This document shows positions 14,408 through 62,961 of a DNA stretch of 64,000 bases, in pieces. The DNA lies in the IMG/VR virus record IMGVR_UViG_3300013233_000773; one strand, given 5' to 3'. A program made the position numbers and the translations under genes. Numbering within the stretch: the first letter of the stretch is position 1; every line of letters starts with the position of its first letter. Under the pieces are notes generated by a model that made no database searches, had not been told where the DNA came from, and worked only from the letters and a program-made list of their open reading frames with translations. The DNA comes from a virus.

Positions 14408-15268
14408 TCAGCGGCCAATCCTCAACCACAGCAAGAACCTGTACTTCGGAGGCTCCCTCACGCGCCTCAGACAGTTCAGTTCAGAATATTCGCGCTCCGA
14501 CATGGAACACCGCCTGGCCCTGTCGTAGACCGTCTTCTTGTGCACGGACGAACCATCCACGGCGACATAATGATAGCTGGGAGAGGTCATCCCGTCGGCC
14601 AACCAGTTGGCGGCAAGATAGATCGTCCCGGAGTGTCCCTGCGCAGGATCTGCGAACGACGTCAACAGCCTGACCTCAGGATTCTCCCGACCATACCTGG
14701 AGACAGCCCTGGACAACAACCACGACGCGAAGTTCTTCCGCTGATAGTCCGGGTGAAGGCAGAACCTCACTAGCTCCCGGACCTCGGACTGCTCAAGGCC
14801 ATGCCTGGACGCCATCTCCGCGCGCACCACCGGACCGACCGTCACCGCCCCGACCAGCGTTCCACCAAGGCGCGCACCGACCGTCCAGCCACGCCTGCCG
14901 GACCTACCCAGATAGTGGAAGGCCCCATAGAAGTCAAGGTACTCACTGGCCGGAACCGTCTCAAGACGGACCTCGTCGAACGAGAACTCCATCGGCGACA
15001 TGGCGAGCCCGATCCTCCGCTCCAACTCACCCAGGTCGTCGCCGACCACCATGAACCTGTCCCGGTAGCGGGCGAATCCCGCCATTATCTTCTCCCGCTC
15101 CTTCGGCTTCCTGGCAAGCCACTCGGACTTGGTCTCCACCACGAGGAACTCACCGTTCGACAACCAGATCCGGAAGTCAGGGACGAAGTGTCTCTCCCTT
15201 CCCCCCGAACTCATACGGCACGAGGTCAAAGTCCCTCTCCAGACGGACGACACGCCCGTCGGAGTCAC
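14408..15268 (-). CDS. C-terminal part of an HTH/TnsA-like endonuclease-Mom fusion (nuclease C-half plus Mom-like GNAT domain)
   Basis: RHFVPDFRIWLSNGEFLVVETK followed by FHYLGRSG...ELVRFCL...NFASWLLSRAV...SFADPAQGHSGTIYLAANW. Continues ORF 15177..16382 across a frameshift. Confidence 0.85.
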   Translation of the reverse strand: MTPTGVSSVWRGTLTSCRMSSGGRERHFVPDFRIWLSNGEFLVVETKSEWLARKPKEREKIMAGFARYRDRFMVVGDDLGELERRIGLAMSPMEFSFDEVRLETVPASEYLDFYGAFHYLGRSGRRGWTVGARLGGTLVGAVTVGPVVRAEMASRHGLEQSEVRELVRFCLHPDYQRKNFASWLLSRAVSRYGRENPEVRLLTSFADPAQGHSGTIYLAANWLADGMTSPSYHYVAVDGSSVHKKTVYDRARRCSMSEREYSELNCLRRVREPPKYRFLLWLRIGR

Positions 15269-16382
15269 ACGCCTCTATCAGCCGGAGCTCGTACGACGAG
15301 TCATGGTTAAGCTCGCCGAACCTCGTGGACACCGTACCGCGCCTTGACCGGACCAGTCCGCGCCTTCGCAGGTCCGAGATCAGCAGCGACTGTCTACGCC
15401 TCCTGTCCAGGTCTGACCACAGCTCCGACTGCTTCCTCCGGACGACCTCGACGTACTCCGGATGGTCCTCCCAGAACTTCCTTCCAAAGACGGCACCGAC
15501 CTCGGCGCAGTACCTCCTCGTCTCCTCGACGTGCCTGCGTCCATGAAACGGATTGCCACCGCCAGAGAACATCTCGGACACAGCATCCGGCCTCACGCCC
15601 TCCCCGACCAGGATCCGCTTGACTGCCTCGACGGTACAGCCGAACCTTGCCGCAACCCTGCTCATGGAGCCGACCGCACGATACGCACCGAGCACGGCCC
15701 CACGGTCGAGCCGCTGGTTCCTCCTCGAGATCGAAACCTTCTCTATCCCGTACTTTCTCAATCTATAGTCGACGAAGCCCACTCCCCTGCCGATGAACGA
15801 GGCTATCGCCGGCATGCCGTATCTGCAATATGCGTTCCTGAACCACTCCTCCGTGTCCTCATATGGCGGCAGGTCGGTCGGTACGGACTCACTGCGACGC
15901 TTGCGCACCATCCGGGGCTTCCGGACCGGCACTCCGCCCTCCACGAGGACCTTTCTCACGACATAGGTGGACACGCCATGCCTGCTGGCCACCACGTGCA
16001 TGCTGTCGCCGGACCCATACTCCCTGCAGATGACCGCGCGGTCAATGCCGTCCACGGCCACCTTCACTTCATGCTTCTTGAGCACGCGACCGACCGCAGC
16101 GACTGACCTGTCGGTATCCTCGGCTATCCTGGAGACCGTCAACCCACGCCCCCGGAGCGAGACCACCCTCCTCACGAACTCCGGATCGAACCTAGACCTC
16201 TGAGCACCTGACCTAGATCGAGACAGGCCAAGATGTCTGAACAGCTTCCCGACCGTGCGCCGCGGAACGCCAAGCAGGACACCTATCTCCGCCTGAGTCT
16301 TGCCCTCGCCGAACCACGCCCTCACGCGCTCCTTGTCGGACTTGGAGAACGTCTCGTGAACAGGAACCGGAACAGAACCCAT
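15177..16382 (-). CDS. N-terminal part of the same gene: multiple HTHs, NUMOD3-like motif and start of the TnsA-like nuclease
   Basis: Several HTH-like segments, NUMOD3-like GNPFHGRRHVEETR, then HDSSYELRLIEACD...VPYEFGG. Terminates just after a G6 run. Confidence 0.8.
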   Translation of the reverse strand: MGSVPVPVHETFSKSDKERVRAWFGEGKTQAEIGVLLGVPRRTVGKLFRHLGLSRSRSGAQRSRFDPEFVRRVVSLRGRGLTVSRIAEDTDRSVAAVGRVLKKHEVKVAVDGIDRAVICREYGSGDSMHVVASRHGVSTYVVRKVLVEGGVPVRKPRMVRKRRSESVPTDLPPYEDTEEWFRNAYCRYGMPAIASFIGRGVGFVDYRLRKYGIEKVSISRRNQRLDRGAVLGAYRAVGSMSRVAARFGCTVEAVKRILVGEGVRPDAVSEMFSGGGNPFHGRRHVEETRRYCAEVGAVFGRKFWEDHPEYVEVVRRKQSELWSDLDRRRRQSLLISDLRRRGLVRSRRGTVSTRFGELNHDSSYELRLIEACDSDGRVVRLERDFDLVPYEFGGKGETLRP

Positions 16383-16385
16383 GAA

Positions 16386-18086
16386 TTACCTTCTCCCGAG
16401 CACCTCTACGAAGAACTCAACCGGAGACCTCACCCTGTTCCTGGAGCGTAGCGGCACCACCCTGGCACGGAACCGGGAACACACGAAGTCCCTAAGCCTT
16501 CCATCAAGGTGCAGCACCGTCCTTCCGACCTCCAGGGCACGCCCTATCAGGCCCACGACGAACGACCCAGCCCACTCCTCAAAGCCACCATAATCCACGC
16601 CGTCCAGATAGTCCTCCTTGTTCCAGAACGGCGGAGAAGTGAACACGAATCCATCACCCGGCCACCCCGCATCCTCCCACCTAGAGTTCAACAGGACGGC
16701 GGAACTGCCTAGATAGTCACGGAGCCCAACGAGCCCAGGAAAGCAGATCCCCGGATCAGTGCCCCAGTAGTCCAGCCCCAGCACGTGTGACGCAAGTAAT
16801 CTGTTGCCCCAGCCGGCACAGGGATCGACCCACCGGCCCGACAGGTCTAGCGTCCTGACCGCAGCCATCACGGCAGGACACCCGAGCAGGGAAGCTCTGG
16901 ACATCCCGACGAACATCATTTCCCTCAATAGCCTCCTCGGACCTATCCTCGAACCAGGGTTTAGAAATAGGCGCTCAACGCCCTTGCGCACCAGGTCAGA
17001 GCGCAGGCCAGCAACTGGCGGTTGCCCGTTCAAGGAGACCCTCCAGACGTCCGGCTGAAAGCTACAGACAACCTCGTTGCCTGCGGAGTGCAGGTTCCTT
17101 ATGGACTGGCCGTCCATGAACTGCCCAAGATCAGTCCCACGCAGTCTCTCAAGGTCACCCTCCCTGTCGAACCATCCCGGAGCGGACCAGCCCTCCTCAA
17201 GTACGAGACCGGTAACGCGGTCAACGACCTCATGGACGTCGGTCCTATGCCGCACGTCGCCCTGCGGAATGCACAACTCAAAGTCATGCATCGACCTCCA
17301 CCGCAGGACCTCCCTGCCCCAGAACTCGTCATATCTGGCATGCTTCCTGTCCAGGAAGACGGTTGCTCCATCATAGAGCCAATCGAGCAGGACAGCCAGT
17401 CTACTTCCACCATTCCACTTCAGCTCGTGCACGGACCCACGGCGGCGGACCGCTCCGGACAGGCCGATTGCCGAATGGACCCGCTCGTCCATGGACCGCA
17501 GCGGGCCGGCATGGCGGCAGACGATGTTGACGTACCATGAGGACGTCTTGCCGGACCACCTGGACAGGCACCCGTCACCGTCAAAATAACCACGCAGGAA
17601 ATGACGGAACGAGCAGTCCGGGACATGTCCTATGATGGAAGGATCGCCATTCTCCTTGTACCGCTGCCAGCCAAGGCCGAGCAATCTCCTGGACATGCCG
17701 GTTGAGTTGAAGACGAGCCCCTTCCTTGGGTGTTCACGGTCATCCGCGACAAGCCTGCCCCGATGTCCTATGGCGGCCTGCAGTTTCTTGAGGTGACCGC
17801 CGTCGGATTCCTTCAGGAAGACGCGCACAGCACGCCTGGTTCCTGCCGACTTGGCCAGGCATCCGTCGGCAAGCAGGAATCCGAGCCAATAGGATGGCTT
17901 TTCTGCCTCAAGGTCGCCAAAGAAGTCTTCTCGGAGCCTGAACTTCCTTGTTCCGGTAGACCTTCCCTTGAGGCCGAGCCTGCGCCAGTAACGACGCACC
18001 GTGGTTATTCCACAGCCGAGCTCTACCGCCATTCTTCTCTGCGTGAAGCCGTCTGCATGGAGCTTTATGATGACATTTTCGTCCAT
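16386..18086 (-). CDS. HTH-LAGLIDADG endonuclease fused to an amino-DNA methyltransferase domain
   Basis: YWLGFLLADG and FLRGYFDGDG motifs; C-terminal SAM-binding DPCAGWG and catalytic-type FTSPPF. Confidence 0.85.
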   Translation of the reverse strand: MDENVIIKLHADGFTQRRMAVELGCGITTVRRYWRRLGLKGRSTGTRKFRLREDFFGDLEAEKPSYWLGFLLADGCLAKSAGTRRAVRVFLKESDGGHLKKLQAAIGHRGRLVADDREHPRKGLVFNSTGMSRRLLGLGWQRYKENGDPSIIGHVPDCSFRHFLRGYFDGDGCLSRWSGKTSSWYVNIVCRHAGPLRSMDERVHSAIGLSGAVRRRGSVHELKWNGGSRLAVLLDWLYDGATVFLDRKHARYDEFWGREVLRWRSMHDFELCIPQGDVRHRTDVHEVVDRVTGLVLEEGWSAPGWFDREGDLERLRGTDLGQFMDGQSIRNLHSAGNEVVCSFQPDVWRVSLNGQPPVAGLRSDLVRKGVERLFLNPGSRIGPRRLLREMMFVGMSRASLLGCPAVMAAVRTLDLSGRWVDPCAGWGNRLLASHVLGLDYWGTDPGICFPGLVGLRDYLGSSAVLLNSRWEDAGWPGDGFVFTSPPFWNKEDYLDGVDYGGFEEWAGSFVVGLIGRALEVGRTVLHLDGRLRDFVCSRFRARVVPLRSRNRVRSPVEFFVEVLGRR

Positions 18087-18089
18087 TGA

Positions 18090-18115
18090 TAGAAGTATCC
18101 AGTAGAAGTATCCAA
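18090..18115. repeat. 13-bp direct repeat TAGAAGTATCCA(G/A) x2
   Basis: Read directly, immediately upstream of the LAGLIDADG-MTase start codon. Confidence 0.85.
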
Positions 18116-18194
18116 CAGTATGTTTGTATCGGACAAGCTGTTCAAATAAACTATCTCAACACCAACTGGCGACTTAGATGAGATGTCTTCCTAT

Positions 18195-18233
18195 AAAAAG
18201 AGGCCCCGGAGGATGTGCTCTCCGGGGCCTCTT
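18195..18233 (-). terminator. Rho-independent terminator after the major capsid gene
   Basis: 14-bp perfect stem AAGAGGCCCCGGAG / CTCCGGGGCCTCTT with an 8-nt loop, running into a T5 tract on the minus strand. Confidence 0.9.
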
Positions 18234-18265: not shown

Positions 18266-19816
18266 CTACAGGTTGGAGACTGTCACAACACCGTAGTAAA
18301 GTCCGCCGTCCTCGATGAGTTTCTTGCCGTATCGGGTCATGATGCCCTTGGAAGGCGTGAAACTGTTCGGATCGAGGACCGTGGGGGTGCTCAGGAGCGG
18401 TATGTACGGCGCGTAGAAGTACCCGCTGTCGAGCACCGAGTTGCCCTTGAAGCCGAGCAGGATCTTGCAGTTGGGGAAGAGCGGATCCTTGTAGAGCCGC
18501 AGCTTGCCCTGGATCGTTCCGGCGGAGGTGATGCCGATGTCGATCCCGTCCTGGGCGAGGGCGTCGGAACCACGGAAGTCATTCAACTGCTCGAACTTGG
18601 AGGCGATGTCGGCAGAGGTCACCATCCAGTTGGCCGGCCCGCGGAGGGTCGTCCTGTGGATGATGTTGGAGACTTCCAGCACCTTGTAGAGCAGGGCGAT
18701 GTTCCGATCGGTGAAGTTGACCGAAGCTCCTGCCGCCGTTCCGAAGTTGTGGGTGGTCCTGATCGAACTGGCGATGATCAGGTCGTTGATGATTTCGCGG
18801 TCGATCTCGGCGACCATCTCGTCGGCCATGAGGTCGGTGAGGGTCCCTTCCGCGTCGATGTTGTGGACGCTCTTGAGGTCCTGGGCCGCTTCGAGGGACC
18901 AGGAGGTCTTGAGCTTCCGGGTGATCGCGCTGACCGTGTCACTGTCGATCGAGAGCGTGATCTCGGGCTGGAAGGGGTTGTTCTCCAGGTCGAACTCGTA
19001 GTCAGCCCTGGCGATCGCTCCTGCCGGGAACGAGCCGGACGAGAGGGTGATCTTGAGGCTGGCATCGGTGTGGTCGAACTTGGTCGCTCCTGGAGTGGTC
19101 GTGTCGACTGTGACCGTGGGACAGGCCGTCGAGTCGCTGACCAGGACCTGGTCCGGGTCGCCGTTCGAGTCGAAGCTGATCTGCAGGCAGGGCTCTGGCG
19201 ACTCGCAATTGTCGGCATCGGAGAGGAAGACGTTGACGGTGAGGGTACCGCCGAGCACGGGCTTGTGGAGCAGGCCAGAGCTGGTGATGAGGGTACCGGC
19301 GGTGTCGATGGTGAGATCTTCGTCCTTGACGGTCTGGGAGCTGTAATAGGGGTCGAGCGCCCATCCGTTCTGCCGTGCGAACTGCTGGGCGGTGTTCTGC
19401 CTCATGATCTGGGTTCCGGCGACCGTCTGGCCCTTGCTGATGGCGTAGCGGTATCGGATGTAGAAGATGAGGCTGGCTGGGCTGCTCATGGGTTGGACGC
19501 CGACGAGGTTGTCCGCGATCAGCCGGGGGTAGGACTTCCGGATGAGGGGAAGGGCGAACCTGGTGAAGTCGGCGATGTTGCCGGTGGTGGTCGCTTCCTC
19601 GAAGAGGGGGGACCCTTTCCGGTCGCTGTGGGCGTGCTGGTTCTCGAGCATGGCGGCCATGAGGTCGAACTTGCCTGCCTTGACCTCGGCGCATTTCTTG
19701 AGCACGGGTGCCCATTTCTTGACGAGCTTGTTGCGGCGTGCTTCCATCATGAGGTGGGCGTCGCGCCGTTTGTTGTCCTCGGTAATGGTGCCGGCCCTGG
19801 GGGTTCCGCTTCGCAT
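18266..19816 (-). CDS. gp23: Major capsid protein (T4 gp23-like)
   Basis: LIADNLVGVQPMSSPASLIFYIRY, TRKLKTSWSLEAAQDLKSVHNIDAE, GYFYAPYIPL, KGIMTRYG. Confidence 0.97.
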   Translation of the reverse strand: MRSGTPRAGTITEDNKRRDAHLMMEARRNKLVKKWAPVLKKCAEVKAGKFDLMAAMLENQHAHSDRKGSPLFEEATTTGNIADFTRFALPLIRKSYPRLIADNLVGVQPMSSPASLIFYIRYRYAISKGQTVAGTQIMRQNTAQQFARQNGWALDPYYSSQTVKDEDLTIDTAGTLITSSGLLHKPVLGGTLTVNVFLSDADNCESPEPCLQISFDSNGDPDQVLVSDSTACPTVTVDTTTPGATKFDHTDASLKITLSSGSFPAGAIARADYEFDLENNPFQPEITLSIDSDTVSAITRKLKTSWSLEAAQDLKSVHNIDAEGTLTDLMADEMVAEIDREIINDLIIASSIRTTHNFGTAAGASVNFTDRNIALLYKVLEVSNIIHRTTLRGPANWMVTSADIASKFEQLNDFRGSDALAQDGIDIGITSAGTIQGKLRLYKDPLFPNCKILLGFKGNSVLDSGYFYAPYIPLLSTPTVLDPNSFTPSKGIMTRYGKKLIEDGGLYYGVVTVSNL

Positions 19817-25302: not shown

Positions 25303-26982
25303 CTAGTCTGGCATGGACTCCGCCGCCTCGCTGACGTACTCGGGCATCTCCTCGTCGACCGCCTCCAGAAGGACCTTAGTCTTCCTCTTGGATTCGTTCG
25401 TCAGGTCGCTGTCCACCACGCTCTCGAGGACATCACTCCCTACCTTCAGTCCATACAGCTCGTTCGAGTTCACGTAATGCTTCAGGGGCGGAGTGATCCT
25501 CTTCGAGTCGTCGTACTGTCCGAGCAGGGAGTCCGTGCTACTGGTCCTGCTGAAGTCCTCGATCAGGAGCCTGTCCTCGTCGTCCACGGCGTCCTCGGTG
25601 CTCAGTTTGGCGTTCCTACGGTCCTTCATCATGCGGATCTCGTCCGGAGTCATGTCCGTAAAGCGCTCCACTATCCACTCCTCTGGGAAGAAGCCAAGAT
25701 CCTTGAGGTTGCCCATGATCTCCGTACGGGTGTTCCACGTCTCGATACGGTACAGCTCATCTATCGCGGAGGAGGCAGTCATCGACAGATCGAACTTACT
25801 GATCTCGGAGACCGGATAGTTCCGCATGGCAAGGTGCACTATCACCAGCTTCTTCAGGCCCGCCACGACCTCCCTCTGGATCCACTGGATCGCCTTGGCG
25901 AACTCTGGAGAAACTGAGGCCAGGGACTTTCCGTCCATGTCCGCAGCCTCTCCGATGCCGACCCGGTTGAACGGAATCTTGAGCCCGGTAACCATCTTCT
26001 TCTTGAAGTACTCTATGTCCGCTATCTGGTCCAGGTTCTCGGCGCCAGGCAGGGTGTCAATCGTCGGGCCGGTGCCGTCCGCGCGCTTCGGAAGGAAGAA
26101 GTCGTCCTCCTGTATGAGCGGGTTCCAGCGCTCATTGACCTTACCGGTGGCCGGGTCGACGAACTTGTGCTTCTTCATCTGCCTGGCGATGAGCTCCATG
26201 TACTGCGGAACCTCCTTCGGAGGGATGTTCCCCACCGGGATCGAGAAGATCCTCTTCTCCGGAGCCCTCGTGATCCTGTAGACCAGTGCAGCGTCCTCCA
26301 TCAAGCGCAGGCGCTTATAGTCCTTGCGGCCACCGTCCAGAATGGACCGACCATAGGGAGCATAGACCGTCTCGAACGACGAGAGCCGCAGGTGCATGAC
26401 CTGCCAGGGATGCAGGAACCTGGGCTCGCTGCCGAAGGCATCCTGGAAGTAGAAGCCGACGAGGTCCCCGAACTTGGTCTGGACCCGCGTCACGTTGTAC
26501 ACGTTCAGGAACTTGAAGTCAGCCACCCCGTCGCGGGACTGCGTCGGAACGATCTCCGAAAGGAAATCCCCATACTTGCACAGGTACCTGATCAGAGGCC
26601 TAACCCGGCTGTCGATCAGTACCGTGTCGTATAGGAAGTCCTCGATCGCCTTCTGGAGAGGCCTGGACGCGGCCCGGACGATGACCGTGTGCTTGCGCTC
26701 GGAGTCTATCAGTGACGACTCGTCGCTGTAGATGTCGAGGGCAGCGGAGACCTCACCCACCTCGTCCATCATGTCATAGTCCTTGTAGCGTTCCAGGCGG
26801 TTTATCTGCAGGTTCGTCTGCTCAAGCAGGGCGGACTGCTTGGCGAAGTTCAGGAACTGCCCACCCTGCGTGATCCTCGACAGGTCACTCTGGTCCTGAT
26901 AGAGCGAATCGGAACGGTACAGGTTGGCCCTGCGCATATAGGCCCGGACCCTGTCCCATAGCTGCCACTTAGGTAAGGCCAT
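25303..26982 (-). CDS. gp20: Portal protein (T4 gp20-like)
   Basis: LRLMEDAALVYRITRAPEKRIFSIPVGNIP, EDDFFLPKR, IDTLPG, DIEYFKKKM. GGAGG RBS. Confidence 0.96.
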   Translation of the reverse strand: MALPKWQLWDRVRAYMRRANLYRSDSLYQDQSDLSRITQGGQFLNFAKQSALLEQTNLQINRLERYKDYDMMDEVGEVSAALDIYSDESSLIDSERKHTVIVRAASRPLQKAIEDFLYDTVLIDSRVRPLIRYLCKYGDFLSEIVPTQSRDGVADFKFLNVYNVTRVQTKFGDLVGFYFQDAFGSEPRFLHPWQVMHLRLSSFETVYAPYGRSILDGGRKDYKRLRLMEDAALVYRITRAPEKRIFSIPVGNIPPKEVPQYMELIARQMKKHKFVDPATGKVNERWNPLIQEDDFFLPKRADGTGPTIDTLPGAENLDQIADIEYFKKKMVTGLKIPFNRVGIGEAADMDGKSLASVSPEFAKAIQWIQREVVAGLKKLVIVHLAMRNYPVSEISKFDLSMTASSAIDELYRIETWNTRTEIMGNLKDLGFFPEEWIVERFTDMTPDEIRMMKDRRNAKLSTEDAVDDEDRLLIEDFSRTSSTDSLLGQYDDSKRITPPLKHYVNSNELYGLKVGSDVLESVVDSDLTNESKRKTKVLLEAVDEEMPEYVSEAAESMPD

Positions 26983-27002
26983 CCGCACACCTCCAGACAG
27001 GG

Positions 27003-43815: not shown

Positions 43816-43874
43816 GAATCCTCTCCTTTCGACCACTCCATATCGCAGCACCGGCCATGTGCAAGTCCATAAAG

Positions 43875-43947
43875 CGTCCTCGCCAGGACTCGAACCTGGA
43901 ACCTGCGGATTAGGAATCCACCGCTCTATCCATTGAGCTACGAGGAC
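43875..43947 (-). tRNA. tRNA-Arg (anticodon CCT)
   Basis: GTCCTCG/CGAGGAC acceptor stem, D-arm TAGCTCAATGGATAGAGC, anticodon arm GTGGA-TTCCTAA-TCCGC, T-arm CCAGG-TTCGAGT-CCTGG. CCA is not encoded. Confidence 0.95.
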
Positions 43948-48620: not shown

Positions 48621-51600
48621 TTACAGGTCCAACAGGAACCTCCTCTTCCGACCGCCAAACACCCTCCGGAAACCACCGGCCTCCGCATACTCCCGCTCAG
48701 TCAACGACATCTTCCTGGCATGCTGATACAGCGTCTTCTTATGCAGAACATAGCCCTCACCATCCACATACCAATAGTCCGGCTGCACGAACCCATCCAA
48801 GCGCCAGTTCGAAGCAGAATAGATCGTCCCCACATGATTATACGTCTCATCGCTGAACGAAACAAGACGCCGCACCACAGGACGCAGCTCACGGACCAGC
48901 CGCACCGCCCTAGACAGGAACCACGAAGCAAGGTTCTTCCTACGGAACGCAGGACGGATACAGAACCTAGAAAGCTCAAGCACCTCCCGCACCGACATCC
49001 CCATCCTCGAAGCAACCTCCCTACGGACCACTGGCGCAAACACCGCAACCGCAGCCAAGTCCCCGCCACGGAAACACCCCACCTTCACCCCACCCCGCCC
49101 GATGCACCCAGCATAGTGATGCCTCGCCACGAACGCAGAAGCCTCCACCATCCCGATCTCCCGCACCGACAGCTCATCGAACGAAAAGTCAACCGCATCC
49201 TCCACGGCAAGGCCCGTCCAATACCGCACCAGGTCAAGGACCCTACCGCGAGCATGGAACTCATGCTCCCACACATGCTTCACCCGATACTGCGGAAAGT
49301 ACCTCGCCACGTACGTCGCCTTCGCACGGTCCCTCGCGGCCACCGAGCGCAGACCATGCCAATAGTCGCCCTGAACCTCCACCAGAAGACCATGCTCCGG
49401 CAGGAAAAAGTCGAACACATAGAACCCCACGCGAAACTGCTGAACATACTCGATCCCCAGCTCATCCAGGAACGAAGAAAAGAGCACCTCCACGCTCGAC
49501 ATCCTACCGGACTGCGAAGAACGGATCACCGCCATCCGCTCCCGGAACTCAGGATCAGCCCATGCCCTCCTCGATATGGCTGACATCTTCGCCCGGAACT
49601 CGTCCGAGGAGAAGACCTCCATCATCCGCTCCCGGAATTCAGGATCCTCCCACGCCCTACGGGCAGACTCCGAAGCCTTCGCCCGGAACTCATCCGAAGA
49701 GAAGACCTCCATCATGCGCCTACGGAATTCAGGATCCGCCCACATCTCCCTGGAAGATTCAGCACACTTCGCACGAAACTCATCCGAGGAGAAGACCTCC
49801 ATCATCTTAGAACGGAACTCAGGGTCTTCCCACCTCCTCCTGATTGCTTCTGTCATCCGCTCACGGGATTCTGGATTGACCCATTTCTGTCTAGCGACCT
49901 CAATCATCCTGGAACGGAACTCGGGATCCGTCCACTTCTCGCCGACCAGCCCTGACATCTTCTCCCGAAACTCGTCAGAGGAGAAGACCTCTGCCATCCG
50001 CCTGCGGAATTCAGGATCCGCCCATCTCCCTCTGACCAGCCCGGACATCTTCTCCCGAAACTCATCCGACGAGAAGACCTCCATCATCCTAGAACGGAAC
50101 CCTGGATCCTCCCACATCTCCCTAGAAGATTCAGCACACTTCGCACGAAACTCATCCGAGGAGAAGACCTCCATCATCTTAGAACGGAACTCAGGGTCTT
50201 CCCACCTCCTCCTGATTGCTTCTGTCATCCGCTCACGGGATTCAAGATCCTCCCACGCCCTACGGGCAGACTCCGAAGCCTTCGCCCGGAACTCGTCCGA
50301 AGAGAAGACCTCCATCATCCGCTCCCGGAATTCAGGATCCGCCCACGCCCTACGGGCAGACTCCGAAGCCTTCGCCCGGAACTCATCCGAAGAGAAGACC
50401 TCCATCATCCGCTCCCGGAATTCAGGATCCGCCCACCTCTCCCTGGAAGATTCAGCACACTTCGCACGAAACTCGTCAGAGGAAAAGACTTCCACCATCT
50501 TAGAACGGAACTCAGGGTCTTCCCACCTCTCCCTGACGAGTCCAGACATCTTCTCCCTAAACTCGTCAGAGGAAAAGACCTCCACCATCCTAGAACGGAA
50601 CTCAGGGTCCTCCCACCTCTCCTTGGAAGCTGCGGACGCCGCCTTTCTCCGAACAGGATCGTCCCATGTCCTTGCTGAAGCCCTGCCTACGGACTGCCTG
50701 TATTCCTCGGAAGCGAAGATCTCGAGCATCCTGGACCTGAAACCATCGTCCGCCCACAGCCGCCTAGATGTCTCCGACATCCTGCGCACGACCTCAGGAT
50801 CGGAATAACGGGCAGCAAGCGAACTTACTACCCTCTCGCGGAACCCATCCTCCCTCCAGAGGTTCCTGATGGTCTCGGACATCCGGGCCCTCCTGTCCGG
50901 ATCTGACCAGACATCACGGGACACCAGCCGCATCCTCTCCCTGAACGCCTCCGACGAGAAGACAGCCATCATCTTCTCCCGAAACTCCGGATCCGCCCAC
51001 CTCTCCCTAGAGATCCTAGACATCTTCTCCCGGAACTCGTCCGATGAGAAGACCTCCATCATCCTAGAACGGAACTCAGGATCCTCCCACAGGTTCCTTG
51101 ACCTTTCAGACATCATCCTGCGGAACTCATCCGAGGAAAAGACCTCCATCATCTTAGAACGGAACTCAGGGTCTTCCCATCTCTTCCTGACCAGCTCAGA
51201 CATTTTCGCCCTGTTCGCAGGATCAGACCAATGCCTAGAGACTGCACTCGACACCCGTTCACGGTATCCAGGATCCTTCCAAGCATTGCTTGCCGCCGAA
51301 GACAGTCTCCTACGACGCTCTGGGTCCGCCCACAGCTGCTCCATTCTGTCACGAAAGGCAACGGTCCACGCACGACGACCGAATTCGGACATTAGGCTCC
51401 TATGCTCGTCGCTGGCCATCCGCTTCTCGGCAGCAGCACGGCGCTCCGGGGTCCACGCACACCGCCCGCACTCGGCCATTCGCCGCCTGAATTCCTCTGA
51501 GCTGCGCAATTCAGAGACACGCTCACGGAACTCAGAATCCCTCCACATCTCCACCGAACGCGCCGACGCCCTCCTGATATACTCCGGATCATGCCACAGC

Positions 51601-52439
51601 TCTGCCATCCGCTCCCGGAACTCAGGAGTCCACGCACGCCGCCCATCCTCCGCAGCACGGGCCGTCTTCATCTCCCTGAACCCAGGCTTCAACCACGCCT
51701 CCCGACCAGCCGCAGACGCCTTCTCCCTGAACTCAGAAGAATCCCACACCGCACGCATCCGCTCACGGAACGCAGGATCCGCCCACATCCTCCTGGAACG
51801 CTCTGACATCCTCCCAAGGAACCCAGGATCCCCCCACAGCTCCGCCATCCGCTCCCGAAACTCAGGAGTCCACGCGCGCTTCCCGAACTCGCTCATCCGA
51901 CGCCTGAACTCATCATCCACCATCCGCTCGCGCCACCACCCCCTAGCCTCGCGCCAGAACTCCTCCGAAGCAGACCTAAGCTGCCTCCGGAACTCGTCGG
52001 TATAGATCCCGTCGAACTTCCCGTCACGATGAGCATGTGAAAGGCCACAGGCATTGCAGCGGAACCTTCCATCGTTCCTGCGGCGGTTCGCACGCACGTT
52101 CCTCAGCCTGGCCCGCACCTCCTTGCCGCAGAAGTCGCACTTCTCCGACACCATCGAACTGGACGGAGTCCCATGCCTCTCACGGGCCCTGGCACGGATC
52201 TTCTCCCGGTACTCGTCCGTATGCACATACCCGTTCACCACGCACCGCCGGCACACAAACTGACCATCGTTCCTCTTCTGGTTGTTCAGATAGGAACCAT
52301 ACTTGACCTCCTGCTCCACACCACACCGGTCACAGGAGACCATCACCCTGTCGGAACGCCTATGCTTGCCCTTAGTCAAGACCATGACAAAGCCCCACAA
52401 CAGCCCTCGATTACATATCCGACACGGCAACATTGACAA
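48621..52439 (-). mobile_element. Giant Zn-ribbon/helical-repeat/Vsr(DUF559)-like endonuclease-Mom fusion
   Basis: Two CxxC...CxxC ribbons; about 35 W.DP.FR repeats; GFYVFDF...LVEVQGDYWH...RDRAK...VWE; Mom-like HHY...ELSRFC...NLASWFLS...SFSDETYNHVGTIYSASNW. Confidence 0.9.
49520..51960 (-). repeat. Coding repeat array of 51-bp (17-aa) and 90-bp (30-aa) units
   Basis: For example, WEDPEFRSKMMEVFSSDEFRAKCAESSREM and WADPEFRERMMEVFSSDEFRAKASESARRA recur, some as exact copies. Boundaries approximate. Confidence 0.93.
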
Positions 52440-52510: not shown

Positions 52511-55378
52511 CTACTGGACAGTACTGGTGACTACACCGCCAGCCTGCAGAACCTCATCCGAGGAGAACGAAGCGTCAGTCCTGAGAACAACCAGATTGAG
52601 CTGTATGAACTCCGCTGTCCTTGTGGGCTTCAGGAAGAAAGCAACGTGAAGCTCATTCCGATCGATGCGCTCAGGCGTATTGTTCCGTTCGTCGCTCACC
52701 ACCAGGAATCCGTTCAGCCCTCTCCTGGCCTGTATGTCGGCAAGGAAGGATTCGCTGACGTTCACCACGCGTGCCCGGGTGATCTCGTCGTTTGGCTCGA
52801 AGACGAACTGCCGGAGGAAGTTGATCGCGTTCTTCTTGATGAAGATCAGGAGCATCCTGACGTTCACCCGGTCTAGGGCAGACTGCTTGCGCTGGAGCGT
52901 CCGCTGTCCAAAGACCGTTATCCCGTCCTGTGGGAAGTTGACGATCGGATTGACCGCGTTCCCAAAGCCGTACATCAGGTCGCGCTCGCCCTGGGTGAGG
53001 TCGACCTCAGTGTCGAGCGGGGTGAGGAGCCTGCCCCTGGTGGTGCCGGCTGGGGCGAACCAGATCTCTGCATCGCGCTCGGTCCTAGCATAGACGCTAC
53101 TGACCTGCCCACTGGGCGGGACGAAGATGGTCTCGCCGCTGAACTGGTCGAAGATCTTGAGCCAGGGATGGTAGAGTGCTCCGTAGCTGGAGTCGATGGA
53201 GTTGGCCAGGTCGCTGAAGAGTATGCCATTGTGCCAGTCGACGACCTGCTGGGCGCGGAGTCCGAATGGGCTGTCGACGATGAAGAGGCAGTCTCCGCGC
53301 CGTTCACACATCTGGAGGGCCTGCCCGATGACGGCTCCGGAGGTGACTCCGGGGATGACCAGGAGGGTGATGTCGAAGACCTCGGGATTCTGGAAGGCGA
53401 AGATTCCGGTCTCGAGGTTGGGGTTGCCTATGATGGCCCTGTCCAGCTCCGAAGAGAAAGCGGGGTCGGTTGGGATGCCGTTGGCCGCGCCGGTGAAGCC
53501 GCTCCTGTTGAACTCTCCGGGCACTCGGACCTCGAAGGAGGCGAGGTCGTTGACCGGGTCGTTGGCGAGGAAGGCTGGTCTCGGGATCCATTGGATGAAG
53601 GCGTTGCCGTTGGGGCCTCCGAACCTGGATCCGGCGTTGATCACGTTGCCGACGTAGCGTTCCTCTCTGGGGTCGAAGGAGACATCGTCCACGGCGTCGA
53701 CGGTGAGGTTGTTCTTGTCCTCGATGACGATGCGGAACCTTCCCGCAGCGTCGGTGCCGCCTCCTGTCTGGGTGAAGACCTGGAGGGTGACCTTGAAGTC
53801 GTCGATCCAGGTGCCTGCGCTCTTCGAGACGAACCAGCCCACTACGTTTTCATAGTAGATCGAGTCGGCGAGGCATTCGTCGCTGGAGGGGTCGACCTCG
53901 CAGGAGAGTGGCGAGGAGGGAGTGATGGTTCCGGACTCCGGGAGCAGGACGCGGGGGTCGTTGAAGACCTGGAACTCCCTGGTGTAGGGGAAGAGGATAC
54001 CGAGCTCCTCGGCGAAACGGAGTGTCTTGAAGTGGGATCCGTCGGCCTGCATCTTGATGCGGTCGAAGCGGTTGTCGGAGGTGGTCTCGATGACGATCTG
54101 GACTTCGCCACCGGGGATGATGACGGTGAAGGCGTTCCAGAACCTGGTTCCGCCGTCGATTCCACCAAGGTGTATGGCGGAGGCTATCGCGGTGGAGGAC
54201 TGGGCGAGCCCGACGGGGACGCTGAACTCGATCTCGGTGGTAGACTGCTGCCCGATGACCTCGACGTTGACCCTGTTGTTGCTGGTGGTGATGTCGTAGG
54301 GGCCTGCGGTGGTGGTGAGCAGGTGGCTGCGGGGGATGTCGAAGGCCCACAGAACCTGTCCGACCTCGAGAGCGAAGGCCTCGGTCCCGGTCAACTGGAT
54401 GCTCTCTCCGGCGATCCTCGTGGTGAAGCAGACGGTCCCGTCCGCTTCTGCGACGGCGAGGTATGGGTCGGAGTCCGGGACGAGGGCGTTGACCGCGTCT
54501 GCGAAGGTGGTCGCGTCGGTGAAGGAGGACCCGTCGGCGAGGGAGTAGGTGGTTGCTCCTGCTCCGGCGACGAGGTCTGCCTCGACGGCGAACGAGAGGT
54601 TGTCCGGTCGTACGGTGAAGGTGAAGGTGTCGTTGGCGGCGATGGGGACGGTCCCCGTGACGACGACCTTGAACAGGAGCCCCTGTCCGGCGTCGATCAC
54701 TTCAGACTCGCCTGGGGTGGCGGACTCGACTAGGACGTCGGTGAGGACGGTGGCTCCGTCGGAGTTGCGGATGACGTCGAAGGTGGCTCCGTCAAGGAGG
54801 GAGCCGCCGGTGGTGGGGACGTCGCTGGTGATCAGGACGGTGAAGCTGTCGTCAATCGGTCCGGTGTAGCCGGCGAGGTCCACGAAGGTGAGGGTGGCTG
54901 AGGCCGGTCCGTCGGTTGGGGTGATCTCGACGTCGTTGTAGTCGATGTCGGTGACGAGGGCGGCGTGGAACTCGAGGGGATCGTCTGCGGTGATTACCCT
55001 GGTGCAGATCTTGCCGTTGTCGATGCCGGAGAAGACGGCTATACGCCCCCAGCCCTTGCCGCGGGCTCCGCTGTTGTCGATGCAGACGCTGGAGAGTTCC
55101 TCTGGCTGTCCGTCCTCGCACTCTACGCCGACCCGCATGATCCAGGCGCGGTTTCCCTCCTCGAAGTAGGAGAGGGCGGCGTATCCGAGGAAGGACTCGG
55201 GAAAGGGTTCGCCGAAGACGTCGATGTACTGCTGGGCGTTGCTGACGAAGGTCGGCTCCTGAACCGGACCCTTCTTTGCAGTGCCGATGAAGGCCGGTGT
55301 GAGCGCTCCGGTGGCCGCTGGGACGATGCTGAGGTCGATCTCGCGGGGGAACACTCCGGGCGAAAGGAAGACGGGCAT
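52511..55378 (-). CDS. gp18: Tail sheath protein (gp18-like)
   Basis: MPVFLSPGVFPREID, FIGTAKKGP, SSYGALYHPW, VFVPPSG, WFAPAG, NPIV, FGQRTL, DRVNVR, FVFEPND. Confidence 0.97.
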   Translation of the reverse strand: MPVFLSPGVFPREIDLSIVPAATGALTPAFIGTAKKGPVQEPTFVSNAQQYIDVFGEPFPESFLGYAALSYFEEGNRAWIMRVGVECEDGQPEELSSVCIDNSGARGKGWGRIAVFSGIDNGKICTRVITADDPLEFHAALVTDIDYNDVEITPTDGPASATLTFVDLAGYTGPIDDSFTVLITSDVPTTGGSLLDGATFDVIRNSDGATVLTDVLVESATPGESEVIDAGQGLLFKVVVTGTVPIAANDTFTFTVRPDNLSFAVEADLVAGAGATTYSLADGSSFTDATTFADAVNALVPDSDPYLAVAEADGTVCFTTRIAGESIQLTGTEAFALEVGQVLWAFDIPRSHLLTTTAGPYDITTSNNRVNVEVIGQQSTTEIEFSVPVGLAQSSTAIASAIHLGGIDGGTRFWNAFTVIIPGGEVQIVIETTSDNRFDRIKMQADGSHFKTLRFAEELGILFPYTREFQVFNDPRVLLPESGTITPSSPLSCEVDPSSDECLADSIYYENVVGWFVSKSAGTWIDDFKVTLQVFTQTGGGTDAAGRFRIVIEDKNNLTVDAVDDVSFDPREERYVGNVINAGSRFGGPNGNAFIQWIPRPAFLANDPVNDLASFEVRVPGEFNRSGFTGAANGIPTDPAFSSELDRAIIGNPNLETGIFAFQNPEVFDITLLVIPGVTSGAVIGQALQMCERRGDCLFIVDSPFGLRAQQVVDWHNGILFSDLANSIDSSYGALYHPWLKIFDQFSGETIFVPPSGQVSSVYARTERDAEIWFAPAGTTRGRLLTPLDTEVDLTQGERDLMYGFGNAVNPIVNFPQDGITVFGQRTLQRKQSALDRVNVRMLLIFIKKNAINFLRQFVFEPNDEITRARVVNVSESFLADIQARRGLNGFLVVSDERNNTPERIDRNELHVAFFLKPTRTAEFIQLNLVVLRTDASFSSDEVLQAGGVVTSTVQ

Positions 55379-55435
55379 TTGTTTATCTCCTCGTTCCGGC
55401 ATTTGGCATTCAGCGTCTGCTGTCCGCCGAGACAT

Positions 55436-56714: not shown

Positions 56715-56716
56715 TC

Positions 56717-59900: not shown

Positions 59901-59907
59901 AGGAATG

Positions 59908-60432: not shown

Positions 60433-60443
60433 CCTCGTTCCTC

Positions 60444-61112
60444 CTACCAGAGGTGAACTCCGAGGGGCTCGCCGAGCAGGATGGCGTCCTGGGCGGCCTT
60501 CTCCTTCTCGGTCTGTCCCTCCGTGCGGAGGGCGTCTCCGTTCAGGCTGAGATTGCCTCCGTCCGGAGCCGGGATGTTGCCGTACTTGCTTCGGATGTTG
60601 CCGAGCATGATCTTGGCCTCGGCGACCAGGGCGCGCTTGAGGATCTCCCTGGCGGAGGGAGAGCGGAACCTCTGGACTGTCGGGATGTACTCGATCACCA
60701 CTGGGAAGCTGCCACGCGGGGTTGGGAACAGGCGGATCTTGTTGTCTCCCTTGACCTCCCACTGCCCCTCGGTCCCAAGGATGCGCTGGCTGAACTTCCG
60801 ATAGTGTTGCAGCAAATGGAAGTCGGTGAGTATGTATTGTATACCGGTGACGTTCCCCACATTAAAAGATATATTGTGAACAACGGAGATGTTTCCTACG
60901 TCCAGGCCAGCATACTCCTGCACTCCACCAAGGGCCCGGCATGCCCTGCGCCAAGCGGGACCATGCGTCACGTCGCCGGAGACGAGGTGCGCGAGCTCGT
61001 GCCGCAGGACGCCCACGAGACGGTCCAGGCCAAGCCTGGCGGACATGAAGACCGTCCAGTCACGCATGTCCGCCATGCCATGGGAATTCAGGTCAGTCAG
61101 GACGATACGCAT
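60444..61112 (-). CDS. Neck protein gp13-like C-terminal half fused to an N-terminal SprT-like HExxH segment
   Basis: C-part: ILTDFHLLQHYRKFSQRILGTEGQW...IRLFPTP...AKIMLGNIRSKY...LNGDAL. N-part: LRHELAH...HGPAWRRAC. Confidence 0.75.
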   Translation of the reverse strand: MRIVLTDLNSHGMADMRDWTVFMSARLGLDRLVGVLRHELAHLVSGDVTHGPAWRRACRALGGVQEYAGLDVGNISVVHNISFNVGNVTGIQYILTDFHLLQHYRKFSQRILGTEGQWEVKGDNKIRLFPTPRGSFPVVIEYIPTVQRFRSPSAREILKRALVAEAKIMLGNIRSKYGNIPAPDGGNLSLNGDALRTEGQTEKEKAAQDAILLGEPLGVHLW

Positions 61113-61155
61113 GCCAACATCCTCCTGAATAGGTTTGTCCGGAAGGAGAGCACAG

Positions 61156-62961
61156 ATGGCCAGGCAGATTGTGCAGATCGACCTAGACGAACTACGGAAC
61201 GACTACCTGTCCGGAGCATCCATGCGCAGCCTCGCCAGGAAGCACCGGACCACCAGGCCGACCATAGCCAAGAAGCTGCGCAGCATGGGCGTCAAGATCC
61301 TATCGTCAAGGGAACGGGTGACCTCCGACCCAGAGGCACACAGAAGGGCGTCCGCAAGGAGGGGGCATAAAAGCACGACGGCCATGCCCGTAAAGGAACG
61401 GCTCGCAGCAACGACGAACGAATGGGACAAACAAGGATTGCTTAGGAAGCTCTATGTCGACGAGAAAAGGAGTTGCGCGGAGATAGCGAAGAGATTAGGG
61501 TGCCACCGGGAGACGATCAGGTCCCGCCTCCACCGGCACGGTATACCTGTTAGAAGCATCGGCGAGGCAAGCCGCACTGCAGCTGCAAGGCCAGACACCA
61601 GGGCCAGGAGATCAAGGGCGTCCTCGTCCAACTGGCTCGACGAGGACTACAGGAAGAGGGTGTCCGGTAAGCTGCGTGGTAAGAGCGTCAAGATGCCTCC
61701 GGAGCACTCGAACAACGTCTCTGCGGCAATGACTAGGCACTTCTCGGACCCAGACAACGTGCGCAGGCATGCAGAGAAGATAAGGAGGTCATGGAATAAG
61801 CCGACTGAAGCAATGCTGAAGCACCTGGGGAACCTGCACGACGGACTCCGCAACGATGGCGAGATGCGCAGAAAGCTGCTAAGGACGCAGTCTGACAGGT
61901 TCCGTGAAGAGAAGCGCGAGCAGGCCTTCAAGCACTGGGCAGACGAAGATTTCCTTAAGAAAGGCCTGCCGACGATGAAGAGAAAGTGCTCCGAGGCCGC
62001 GCGGAGGGCGTGGAAGGACCAGGTCTACCGCAGAAAGGTCCTAGACAGCATCTCAAGGAACTCCACCAGCCGCCTGGAGAGGGTGACAACTGGAATCCTG
62101 GACGACCTTGGGATCGCCCATTGCAAGAGACGATTCGGCCGCCAGATGTTCGAGTTCGACGTGTGCATAGGAGCCGACGAGCTTCGTCAGGACCGCGGTC
62201 TACTGATAGAGGTCAACGGCCTCTACGTCCACAGCCGGAGCAAGCAGATAGAGCGGGACACAAGGAGACATCGGTTCTGGGAAAAGCATCTCTCCGACGA
62301 GTGGAGGTTCGAAACCGTCTGGGAGCACGACATGAGCGCATACAGGGTCTTTTTCAACAGGATGGTCTCCATGCTCGGAATCAGGCCGGAACGAAGGAGC
62401 GTAAGACTTAGGGATCTTGAGTTGACGCAGATCGAGCACGGGGAGGCGTCGTCCTTCTATGACAAGTATCACTACCTCGGTCGACACAGGCGCGGCGTCC
62501 ACCTCGGTGCCATGCTCGACGGGTCGCTGGTGGCCTGCTGCGCCTTCGCCGCGCCAACGAGGATGGAGACTGCAGCCCGCCTTGGTCTGGAGTATGGCGA
62601 GGTCCGTGAGCTGTCCAGGTTCTGCATCTCTCCCCTGGTCCATGATCCAAACATGGCATCGTTCGTCCTGTCTAGGTGCAGGAAACTGTATTCGTCCGGA
62701 CATCCAGAGGTGCGGGCCTTCGTAACGTTCGCAGACGGCGAGATGGGGCACCTCGGGACGATGTACCTGGCCTCGAACTGGAAGCTGGACGGGACCACGG
62801 CCCCGTCCTATTTCTACGAGATGGATAGCCTGCGATGGCACAAGAAGACCGTCTGGGACCATGCCAGGAGCGTCGGGGCCAGCGAGAGGGAGTTCGCCGA
62901 GGCAGTCGGGATGACCAGGGTGCAGACCGGCAGAAAGAGGAGGTTCGTCCTGTTCACATGA
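61156..62961 (+). mobile_element. HTH/helical-repeat/Vsr(DUF559)-like endonuclease-Mom fusion
   Basis: Two HTHs; W.D...R repeats; FEFDVCI...LIEVNGLYVH...RD...VWE; then YHYLG...ELSRFC...NMASFVLS...TFADGEMGHLGTMYLASNW. GAAGGAG RBS. Confidence 0.85.

Follow-up and report, generated by a model that had tools for sequence, protein, structure and literature searches.

The 64,000-nucleotide viral stretch analysed here (hereafter the window) contains exactly four open reading frames that end in a Mom-family GNAT domain, and no fragments of such a domain were detected in a six-frame hmmsearch with a Mom-domain profile. With a probability of roughly 0.6, we regard these four genes as free-standing Hef-like homing endonuclease genes of an uncultured T4-like huge phage, in which the Mom domain likely serves to mask a target site.

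A preliminary description had claimed that the four genes share one C-terminal domain, placed behind a nuclease and N-terminal DNA-binding modules. Indeed, the last ~190 residues of the four copies matched the Pfam family PF25680 (Mom) with E-values of 2.5e-21, 2.7e-25, 5.1e-21 and 4.5e-22 and scores of 75.7-89.7 bits, the curated cut-off being 27.1 bits, and all four matched PHROG 1384 ('Mom-like DNA modification protein') with E-values of 1e-24 to 3e-31. The N-terminal modules were also found, as HTH arrays, zinc ribbons and short helical repeats. In copy 3 the helical modules measure 13/17 residues each and the DNA contains 90-bp tandem repeats that are up to 95% alike; a motif pattern has 42 matches in this protein, the family median being 2 and the second-highest count 13. 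Copy 4, which is encoded by the strand opposite to that of its neighbours, may start at TTG 61135 (608 aa) or at ATG 61156 (601 aa).

Table 1. The four nuclease-Mom genes, their parts and genes close to them in the window.
Feature	Position	Strand	Content or annotation
Copy 1	14408..16382	-	Two frames; HTH array, NUMOD-like helices, PD-(D/E)xK (plausibly TnsA-like) nuclease, Mom domain
Copy 1, Mom domain	~14417-14992	-	
LAGLIDADG-methyltransferase gene, 566 aa	16386..18086	-	HTH, LAGLIDADG-type endonuclease, N4/N6 DNA methyltransferase
Major capsid protein (gp23-like)	18266..19816	-	PHROG 138, E 8e-82; upstream of the LAGLIDADG-methylase gene and copy 1
Portal gene	25303..26988	-	PHROG 213, E 1.5e-60; flanks copy 2
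Copy 2, 432 aa	27003..28301	-	Zinc ribbon, five helical modules, EDxHD/Vsr-like nuclease, Mom domain
Copy 2, zinc ribbon	~28128-28244		
Copy 2, helical modules	~27888-28121		
Copy 2, nuclease	~27588-27884		
Copy 2, Mom domain	~27012-27566		
Terminase large subunit, 1245 aa	28309..32046	-	Contains intein sequence with LAGLIDADG domain; flanks copy 2
Copy 3, ~1272 aa	48621..52439	-	Two zinc ribbons, ~55 helical modules, EDxHD nuclease, Mom domain
Copy 3, helical modules	~49491-51995		
Copy 3, nuclease	~49215-49490		
Copy 3, Mom domain	~48630-49199		
Tail sheath gene	52511..55435	-	PHROG 23, E 5e-78; flanks copy 3
Copy 4	61135..62961	+	HTH modules, helical modules, EDxHD nuclease, Mom domain
Copy 4, HTH modules	~61177-61554		
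Copy 4, nuclease	~62059-62364		
Copy 4, Mom domain	~62398-62955		

The four C-terminal domains genuinely belong to the Mom family of GNAT domains. For both models the best structural match was the solved Mu Mom chain 8bv8 (Foldseek E 1e-10; VIA Z 15.0), the AlphaFold model of copy 2 having a pLDDT of 85, and the Mu Mom motifs cited in the preliminary description are present in the solved chain and align in the order claimed. Residues invariant in the Mom family are kept (in Mu numbering H58, Y59, E108, R111, S124, Y159 and H183, plus D149 and H154), with the exception of D149, which is Ser in copy 2. Within the Mom clade of the window, H58 is conserved in 190 of 191 proteins, R111 in 187, S/T124 in 190 and Y159 in 190. 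The window domains do not conserve R151, an essential residue of Mu Mom; it is also missing from other stand-alone Mom-like proteins, which marks Mu as the outlier. The two predicted catalytic centres are conserved across the family, the Mom and nuclease residue sets both being kept in 140 of about 190 proteins.

In copies 2, 3 and 4 the domain directly preceding the Mom domain is a Vsr-like/EDxHD nuclease, as had been proposed. Pfam Vsr and MTES_1575 matches to these three nucleases stayed below threshold; the family profile matched the catalytic domain of I-Bth0305I (3r3p) with an E-value of 5.4e-14 and all five EDxHD positions aligned, and the copy 2 model superposes on 3r3p with a TM-score of 0.81. 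D172, E185, H192, D201 and E221 are invariant in the copy 2 family. The nuclease of copy 1 had been called TnsA-like. It carries invariant E...PD...ExK residues of the PD-(D/E)xK type, but matches to Pfam PD-(D/E)xK families, including TnsA_N, were all sub-threshold, so the TnsA-like assignment is plausible rather than proven. The claim that one modifier has been paired with at least two nuclease folds is thus borne out by EDxHD and PD-(D/E)xK in the window, and a LAGLIDADG-type nuclease may be added from two relatives (P0025 and P0101), in which the Mom domain stands beside weak LAGLIDADG_3 matches.

It should be noted that copy 1, previously described as a single gene, actually consists of two overlapping frames, 15177-16382 and 14408-15268, between which a G-run near 15195-15210, within the nuclease, shifts the frame by one base. 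Intact orthologues (P0026-P0037) have 651-663 aa and are positioned directly after the major capsid gene; copy 1 is 57% and 67% identical to them on the two sides of the shift. Comparison with these orthologues revealed no further lesions beyond the G-run shift. Copy 1 has either been recently inactivated by the frameshift in its nuclease or been mis-assembled.

Copy 2 is wedged between the genes for the terminase large subunit and the portal, and copy 3 immediately follows the tail sheath gene, both borders of which are insertion hot spots for the nuclease-Mom family in related phages (80 loci). The major capsid protein is ~70% identical to that of relatives. A second nuclease-plus-DNA-modifier fusion is located between the capsid gene and copy 1. 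Its product matches PHROG 4645 ('endonuclease', E 6e-33) and, weakly, Pfam LAGLIDADG_3, while its C-terminal half shows a TM-score of 0.85 to phage N4-cytosine methyltransferases in the ESM Atlas and also matches a cluster named 'LAGLIDADG/DNA methylase'. The logic of joining a nuclease to a modifier thus recurs in this gene, here with a modifier whose chemistry is known.

Members of the nuclease-Mom family behave as mobile genes at two sites in relatives, where clean presence/absence differences agree with the homing-type mobility that had been suggested. Surveys of 80 related loci at the sheath gene and 80 at the portal gene found a nuclease-Mom gene immediately downstream of the former in 13 and adjoining the latter in ~16. 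At the portal site, contigs L102 and L103 share 99.97% identity along 6,746 bp that begin 14 bp ahead of the portal start; upstream of this breakpoint L102 carries a nuclease-Mom gene and L103 the terminase 3' end. The L102 gene belongs to a lineage different from that of copy 2. At the sheath site, the sheath gene of L018 is separated from the following gene by a 2.25 kb insert that contains a nuclease-Mom gene, whereas the collinear and ~80% identical L017 has 46 bp there.

The four copies represent old lineages, a different one for each copy, and every lineage is bound to a single insertion site. In the Mom-domain tree they fall into four different groups, two of them in starred site clades (terminase-portal, 99/99; after-capsid, 100/99), and the tree also contains clades of sheath-upstream (98/94) and sheath-downstream (99/94) genes. 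Site labels change 15 times on this tree, as compared to 34 times when the labels are shuffled. Orthologues of copy 2 at the same site are 42-51% identical to it, and its divergence (46-51% identity) keeps pace with that of the flanking terminase (45-51%) and portal (58-62%) genes. The orthologues of copy 1 have likewise diverged in step with their flanks, and the GC3 of both copies matches that of the rest of the genome. It may therefore be that copies 1 and 2 were domesticated long ago and are not mobile at present.

The possibility that the architecture is shared with Hef-like proteins had been raised as a caveat, and such a link was indeed found. A Vibrio phage homologue matches copy 2 over part of both the nuclease and the Mom regions and has relatives in 416 phage records, many of them annotated 'Hef-like homing endonuclease' or 'nuclease/acetyltransferase'. 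Among these relatives is a gene of Acj9 that lies between nrdA and nrdB, where U5 hef has also been reported (PMC2988022), and the alignment of its product with copy 3 covers both C-terminal domains (E 5e-11). The implied novelty of the fusions does not hold, since Iyer et al. 2021 (PMC7824862) already described fusions of Mom domains with restriction-fold nucleases in jumbo phages, with as many as five per genome, and predicted for them a role in protecting self and cutting others. The presence/absence differences, the site-specific lineages and the Hef link seen here have no counterpart in that study.

In the homing reading, the N-terminal zinc ribbons, HTH arrays and NUMOD-like helices would read a long DNA site near the insertion point of the gene, and the EDxHD nuclease (PD-(D/E)xK in copy 1) would cut the gene-less allele of a co-infecting relative, whereupon recombinational repair would copy the gene into the cut genome. 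The Mom domain would most likely be a working acyl- or aminoacyl-transferase whose substrate is adenine in the DNA to which the protein itself is bound. We infer a protective role for it, most probably the masking of the carrier's own site, or of phage DNA more widely, from cleavage. Sandegren et al. are said to have found in 2005 that Hef also cuts the DNA of its own phage in vitro, which would speak against a built-in immunity to self-cleavage, unless unmodified DNA served as the substrate.

Alternatively, the genes may form a restriction-modification-like weapon without homing, in which Mom hypermodifies adenines genome-wide against host restriction and the fused nucleases degrade unmodified DNA of the host or of superinfecting phages. 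This is the published prediction for the architecture (PMC7824862), and it would fit the several copies per genome with differing DNA-binding modules, the ability of Mu Mom to block many restriction enzymes (PMC7261163) and the long residence of copies 1 and 2. We nevertheless consider it rather unlikely, because the patchy occurrence among close relatives, including the 99.97% identical plus/minus pair, is unexpected for a core self/non-self system, and the lineages are bound to particular intergenic sites by essential genes. Moreover, the long sequence-reading arrays suggest one or few sites instead of short frequent motifs, and the nuclease is of the EDxHD homing type.

It is also doubtful that the Mom domain leaves DNA unmodified and acts as a DNA-binding, base-flipping or dimerisation module, or acylates tRNA or protein. 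The Hef-like proteins of cultured phages have lost several Mom residues, and yet U5 Hef is reported to cut (PMC2988022), so that a canonical Mom centre may be dispensable for nuclease function. Mu Mom forms a dimer that has a DNA-binding cleft (PMC13219725), and a single-site Vsr-type nuclease needs a partner for a double-strand break, I-Bth0305I being a dimer (PMC3239194). However, the near-invariance of the Mu-catalytic residues in ~190 diverse proteins is hard to square with a purely structural role. Lastly, the four genes might be decaying, functionless remnants of past invasions. Homing genes often degenerate once fixed and copy 1 is frameshifted, but copies 2-4 are intact with the conserved residues of both domains kept, apart from the D149 substitution in copy 2, copy 1 is otherwise without lesion relative to its 57-67% identical orthologues, and orthologues are still intact at identities down to ~42%. 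We thus regard decay as highly improbable.

Among known systems, the fusions of Iyer et al. 2021 (Viruses 13:63, PMC7824862) combine Mom-family GNAT domains with restriction-endonuclease-fold nucleases as in the window, and phage PA5oct has five of them, compared to four here; they were treated as restriction-like systems, whereas we read the window genes as homing genes. I-Bth0305I (3r3p; Taylor et al. 2011, PMC3239194) is the EDxHD prototype. The window nuclease is 24-25% identical to it, with the E, D, N/H, H and D positions aligned, and both have an N-terminal NUMOD/HTH-type DNA-binding region. Unlike the window genes, I-Bth0305I is intron-encoded; its solved construct extends no further than the nuclease domain, ending at residue 266, and it has no described Mom domain. 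Mu Mom (8bv8; PMC7261163; PMC13219725) shares with the window domains the GNAT fold and the Mom-specific C-terminal helical insertion, but it is a stand-alone enzyme of 231-241 aa from a temperate phage and is controlled by Com, whereas the window domains are parts of fusions. At the position of R151 in Mu Mom the residue varies among the window domains and most other family members, and at that of R154 they invariably have His. Glycyl-tRNA-dependent chemistry has been shown only for Mu Mom and the homologues called active in Nat Commun 2026 (PMC13219725).

A matching layout is found in Hef and the Hef-like proteins of T4-related and jumbo phages (U5 Hef, Acj9 gp227, LIMEstone F-LimIII/VII/VIII/X and those of CP220-type Campylobacter phages), which share with the window genes the three-part order of N-terminal DNA-binding modules, Vsr-like EDxHD nuclease and C-terminal Mom-related domain. 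Their genes also sit between conserved genes, nrdA/nrdB or gp23/gp24, and are also multi-copy, with 10-12 per genome in Campylobacter phages. The window domains are much nearer to bona fide Mom, since in Pfam they score 76-90 bits while Acj9, RPN226, Meroveus and K469 give no hit or one of no more than 18.7 bits, and they keep Y59, D149, H154 and N163 (D149 with the copy 2 exception), which the classical Hef-like proteins of cultured T4-like phages have lost. Unlike the Hef-like proteins, one window copy has a PD-(D/E)xK-type nuclease instead of EDxHD, and another has ~55 helical modules.

All four genes that the preliminary description had listed as ending in a shared Mom-type domain do carry such a C-terminal domain, with scores of 76.7, 89.7, 75.7 and 79.1 bits against Pfam PF25680 (curated cut-off 27.1 bits) and E-values of 1e-24 to 3e-31 against PHROG 1384. 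A six-frame profile search of the window returned exactly these four Mom copies and no Mom-domain fragments. When the AlphaFold model of copy 2 (pLDDT 85) was searched with Foldseek as a check of the proposed fold, the top PDB match was the Mom protein of phage Mu (8bv8; E 1e-10, TMt 0.66). The same structure was the top match for the model of a copy-1 orthologue (VIA Z 15.0, 166 residues aligned), and the profile of the copy-2 family matched it with an E-value of 5.5e-11. In the copy-2 model, the helices 393-402 and 407-413, which follow the conserved His, correspond to the Mom helical insertion after H183 (Mu Mom numbering, as for all Mom residues mentioned here).

The activity of Mu Mom requires H58, Y59, R111, S124, D149, R151 and Y159 as well as the helical insertion (PMC13219725). 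H58, Y59, R111, S124 and Y159 are present in all four window copies, D149 is present in three and replaced by Ser in copy 2, and R151 is present in none. The view that the loss of R151 marks an inactive Mom domain was rejected, because the stand-alone Mom-like proteins of the phages SerPounce, LP-026, VSiP and Warren also lack R151; these proteins have the invariant His at position 154 in common with the window. Mu therefore appears to be the outlier rather than the window.

In the family as a whole, H58, Y59, R111, S/T124, H154 and Y159 are each retained in at least 187 of 191 proteins, and both residue sets, that of Mom and that of the nuclease, are retained in 140 of about 190. At the level of sequence, this conservation argues for two active centres per protein. 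When the nuclease-Mom part of copy 2 was modelled as a homodimer, the score was 0.00 against a mark of 0.32, which weighs neither for nor against. An excess of nuclease-dead but Mom-intact proteins was sought by cross-tabulating intact and mutated catalytic sets; the counts among the EDxHD-type proteins (5 vs 4) show no asymmetry and are uninformative, as the sample had been picked by Mom similarity.

A Vsr-like EDxHD nuclease had been claimed for three copies, and this is borne out for copies 2, 3 and 4 only, by homology to I-Bth0305I (3r3p). The profile of the copy-2 family matched 3r3p with an E-value of 5.4e-14 and with the five EDxHD positions aligned, these being E, D, N, H and D, of which the first D and the H are Ala in the mutant protein that was crystallised. 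The model of the copy-2 nuclease matched the catalytic domain of I-Bth0305I with a TM of 0.81-0.82 at 24-25% identity, and D172, E185, H192, D201 and E221 (copy-2 numbering) are invariant in the copy-2 family.

Copy 1 indeed pairs Mom with a different nuclease fold, as had been proposed: its E...PD...ExK motif together with its core identify this domain as PD-(D/E)xK. Among 17 orthologues, E41, P76, D77, E91 and K93 do not vary, and the secondary structure of residues 39-113 in a model of the copy-1 type fits an alpha-beta-beta-beta-alpha-beta core. TnsA_N was matched a single time and below threshold (PF08722, 22.1 bits vs a cut-off of 26.5) in one family protein, P0043; other weak Pfam matches of the copy-1-type nuclease were to DUF790, VRR_NUC and RE_endonuc. 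Fold searches with the model of a copy-1 orthologue returned lists filled by GNAT matches and never reached the nuclease domain. In the window as assembled, copy 1 occupies two overlapping frames, its reading frame being interrupted by an apparent shift of one base at a G-run of the nuclease domain; each half is otherwise intact. Intact orthologues are 651-663 aa long and 57% and 67% identical on either side of the shift.

The N-terminal region of copy 3 comprises about 55 helical modules of 13 or 17 residues each, which are encoded by 90-bp tandem repeats that are up to 95% alike. By a simple motif count copy 3 reached 42, where the median of the family is 2 and the runner-up has 13. This array represents either a real and recent expansion of the DNA-binding module that is usual in the family, or an assembly problem. 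Matches to GerD, Nif11 and other Pfam families within the array were treated as repeat artefacts. Downstream of copy 3 lies a 334-aa ORF that has no relative among 80 sheath loci and is therefore unusable as a synteny anchor.

The window, which belongs to a contig listed at 147 kb, has a G+C content of about 60%, and its virion genes, a prohead protease gene among them, are of the T4 type. Megablast searches with 20 kb of the window gave no match to cultured phages, and the nearest capsid relative, with 39% identity, is that of an uncultured phage of 595 kb. In relatives, one or two inteins are present in the terminase, and inteins are also found in the portal protein (loci L001 and L004). The methyltransferase half of the fusion protein encoded between the capsid gene and copy 1 contains DPCAGWG and SPPF motifs and has Atlas structure matches with a TM of 0.85. 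This gene is a second nuclease-plus-modifier fusion beside copy 1. No tRNA-Gly gene is located within the window. In the Microbacterium phage Warren (L016:975-2234), a stand-alone Mom-like 'acetyltransferase' gene overlaps a gene with a ParB-like nuclease domain and is followed by a tRNA-Gly gene, an adjacency that is suggestive because Mu Mom uses glycyl-tRNA.

Coordinates of the nuclease-Mom genes and of other features of the window
Feature	Position	Strand	Remarks
Copy 1	14408-16382	-	PD-(D/E)xK nuclease
Apparent one-base shift in copy 1	~15195-15210	-	within G-run
HTH + LAGLIDADG-type endonuclease + N4/N6 DNA methyltransferase fusion	16386-18086	-	566 aa; between capsid gene and copy 1
Capsid protein	18266-19816		gp23-like
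Portal	25303-26988		
Copy 2	27003-28301	-	EDxHD nuclease
Terminase large subunit	28309-32046	-	1245 aa; intein splicing, Hint and LAGLIDADG domains
tRNA-Arg (CCT)	43874-43947	-	single
Copy 3	48621-52439	-	EDxHD nuclease
N-terminal module array of copy 3	49491-51995	-	
Tail sheath	52511-55435		
Copy 4	61135/61156-62961	+	EDxHD nuclease

A Vibrio phage protein annotated as 'homing endonuclease' matches copy 2 over parts of the nuclease and the Mom domain. With this protein, which is that of Vibrio phage K469, as the query, relatives were found in 416 phage records, many of them annotated as 'Hef-like homing endonuclease' or 'nuclease/acetyltransferase', and Campylobacter phages carry 10-12 family copies per genome. 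The nuclease and Mom region of copy 3 matches gp227 of phage Acj9 with an E-value of 5e-11 and with both domains aligned; this Hef-like gene sits between nrdA and nrdB, and nrdB is the reported target of U5 hef (PMC2988022). Hef-type enzymes were assigned to the EDxHD family by Taylor et al. 2011 (PMC3239194). Iyer et al. described five momylating enzymes in PA5oct and proposed that the DNA of the phage is shielded by momylation and other DNA is attacked by the nuclease (PMC7824862). Given this proposal and the Hef-like annotations, both the architecture and the cut-and-protect hypothesis were already in print (Iyer et al., PMC7824862), and the novelty implied by the preliminary description has to be withdrawn. 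The four genes are, judged by their sequences, new members of a known family; the observation as such is confirmed and the published interpretation appears reasonable. A metagenome search with the Mom domain yielded 2,123 clusters (50% identity) at E<=1e-3 and 321 at E<=1e-30, and an EDxHD nuclease was located just upstream of Mom in 135 of the top 150 clusters. In two family proteins from relatives, P0025 and P0101, the Mom domain is combined with weak LAGLIDADG_3 matches.

In the Mom-domain tree, copy 2 falls into a terminase-portal clade (99/99) and copy 1 into an after-capsid clade (100/99). The nearest relatives of copy 3 are sheath-downstream genes and copy 4 lies on its own, neither of the two copies being within a strongly supported clade; sheath-upstream genes (98/94) and sheath-downstream genes (99/94) each have a clade of their own. 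Site labels change 15 times on the tree compared to a mean of 34 when shuffled, a clustering that is inflated by relatedness alone. The window's four copies are old paralogues and do not stem from recent duplication. In related huge phages, orthologues of copies 1 and 2 are found at the corresponding positions, namely after the capsid gene and between the terminase and portal genes. Copies 1 and 2 have diverged about as far as their neighbour genes, the identities to related huge phages being 46-51% for copy 2, 45-51% for the terminase, 58-62% for the portal and about 70% for the capsid protein, and their third-position G+C agrees with that of the remaining genome. Copies 1 and 2 may thus be long-fixed residents. 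A very divergent Mom-like clade (tree branch length 4.3) is found beside sheath genes (L064:5445-7061 (-), L067, L095 and L096); an EDxHD nuclease is detectable in most of its members, though not in L064.

Loci of relatives were surveyed around 80 sheath genes and 80 portal genes. Of the 80 sheath loci, 13 have a nuclease-Mom gene as the direct downstream neighbour of the sheath gene, and about 5 have one directly upstream of it, after a conserved 96-aa gene; the remaining sheath loci have no nuclease-Mom gene at either sheath border. Two of these loci, L017 and L018, are collinear with a DNA identity of about 80%. Exactly at the junction of the sheath gene with the gene after it, L018 contains an insert of 2.25 kb, and L017 has 46 bp at this position. 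The insert encodes a nuclease-Mom protein of 522 aa and also includes a 173-aa ORF (L018:11612-12133 (+)). The latter shows a weak XopH/PRK12361-type similarity (E ~2e-10, far below the cut-off) and may be a passenger gene.

About 16 of the 80 portal loci have a family gene as the immediate upstream neighbour of the portal gene; most of the others have the terminase gene there, abutting the portal gene. L102 and L103, two metagenomic contigs that stem from different samples, are 99.97% identical, with 2 differences in 6,746 bp. Their identity begins 14 bp ahead of the portal start codon, and upstream of this point they diverge completely: L102 has a nuclease-Mom gene there (1-1010) and L103 the 3' end of the terminase gene (1-1184). 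One of the two differences falls on this junction, within the ribosome-binding region of the portal gene. The L102 gene and copy 2 belong to different lineages, so that more than one lineage has invaded the terminase-portal site. The earlier suggestion that the four genes may be homing devices is thereby extended by presence/absence differences at the window's insertion sites in relatives, the current mobility being that of the relatives' genes and not of the window copies.

As far as can be judged from sequence comparisons, the best-supported reading is that the copies are Hef-like free-standing homing endonucleases. What we observed directly are the domain identities, the conserved catalytic residues, the insertion differences among relatives and the site-specific lineages. 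The N-terminal arrays would bring the nuclease to a site in the vicinity of the gene, the break would be repaired by copying the gene, and the Mom domain would modify adenine in the bound DNA. If it worked as is typical of the Mom family, it would act on N6 of adenine in dsDNA after replication and would draw on glycyl-tRNA. A protective role of this modification is less certain than these steps, and we would put its chance at roughly one in three. Free-standing homing endonucleases must spare their own genome even though their insertion leaves the target site undisrupted. Hef is reported to cut the DNA of its own phage in vitro (Sandegren et al. 2005). Hundreds of these nucleases carry a Mom domain that is conserved and, to judge by its sequence, active, which suggests self-avoidance by site-directed DNA hypermodification. 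It is conceivable, with a tentative probability of about 0.3, that Mom provides homing endonucleases with an epigenetic self-immunity, as part of a single-chain, site-specific cut-and-protect device that would occur on EDxHD, PD-(D/E)xK and LAGLIDADG nucleases. Mom, tethered by the same DNA-reading array as the nuclease, would place a bulky tRNA-derived adduct on the adenine(s) of the carrier's own target site; the sequence that the nuclease recognises, an essential one, could then stay unchanged, and only unmodified rivals that have no such gene would be cut. This device would have been assembled independently on the three nuclease types, with Mom being swapped for a methyltransferase in the neighbour gene. 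The protective chemistry of DNA methyltransferases is well known, and the endonuclease-methyltransferase fusion beside copy 1, in which a homing-type nuclease is likewise joined to a DNA modifier, may by analogy lend indirect support to protection by Mom.

The model of Iyer et al. would instead make these proteins a genome-wide restriction-like system, a less likely though conceivable reading that fits poorly with the patchy distribution of the genes and with their long DNA-reading arrays. It is also less likely that the Mom domain is non-catalytic or has a role unrelated to DNA, since its catalytic residues are near-invariant. The question of what Mom does in these proteins has become more tractable now that the glycyl-tRNA-dependent chemistry and the structure of Mom were solved in 2026 (PMC13219725). 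If Mom does confer self-immunity on homing endonucleases, DNA hypermodification would be linked to the spread of selfish genes, and compact enzymes to mark and cut chosen sites would come into view; if it does not, the four genes would be ordinary members of a widespread and catalogued family of phage selfish genes. The Mom domains of the window are unusually near to canonical Mom when compared to the Hef-like proteins of cultured T4-like phages, which score at most 18.7 bits against the Pfam Mom family and have lost Y59, D149, H154 and N163.
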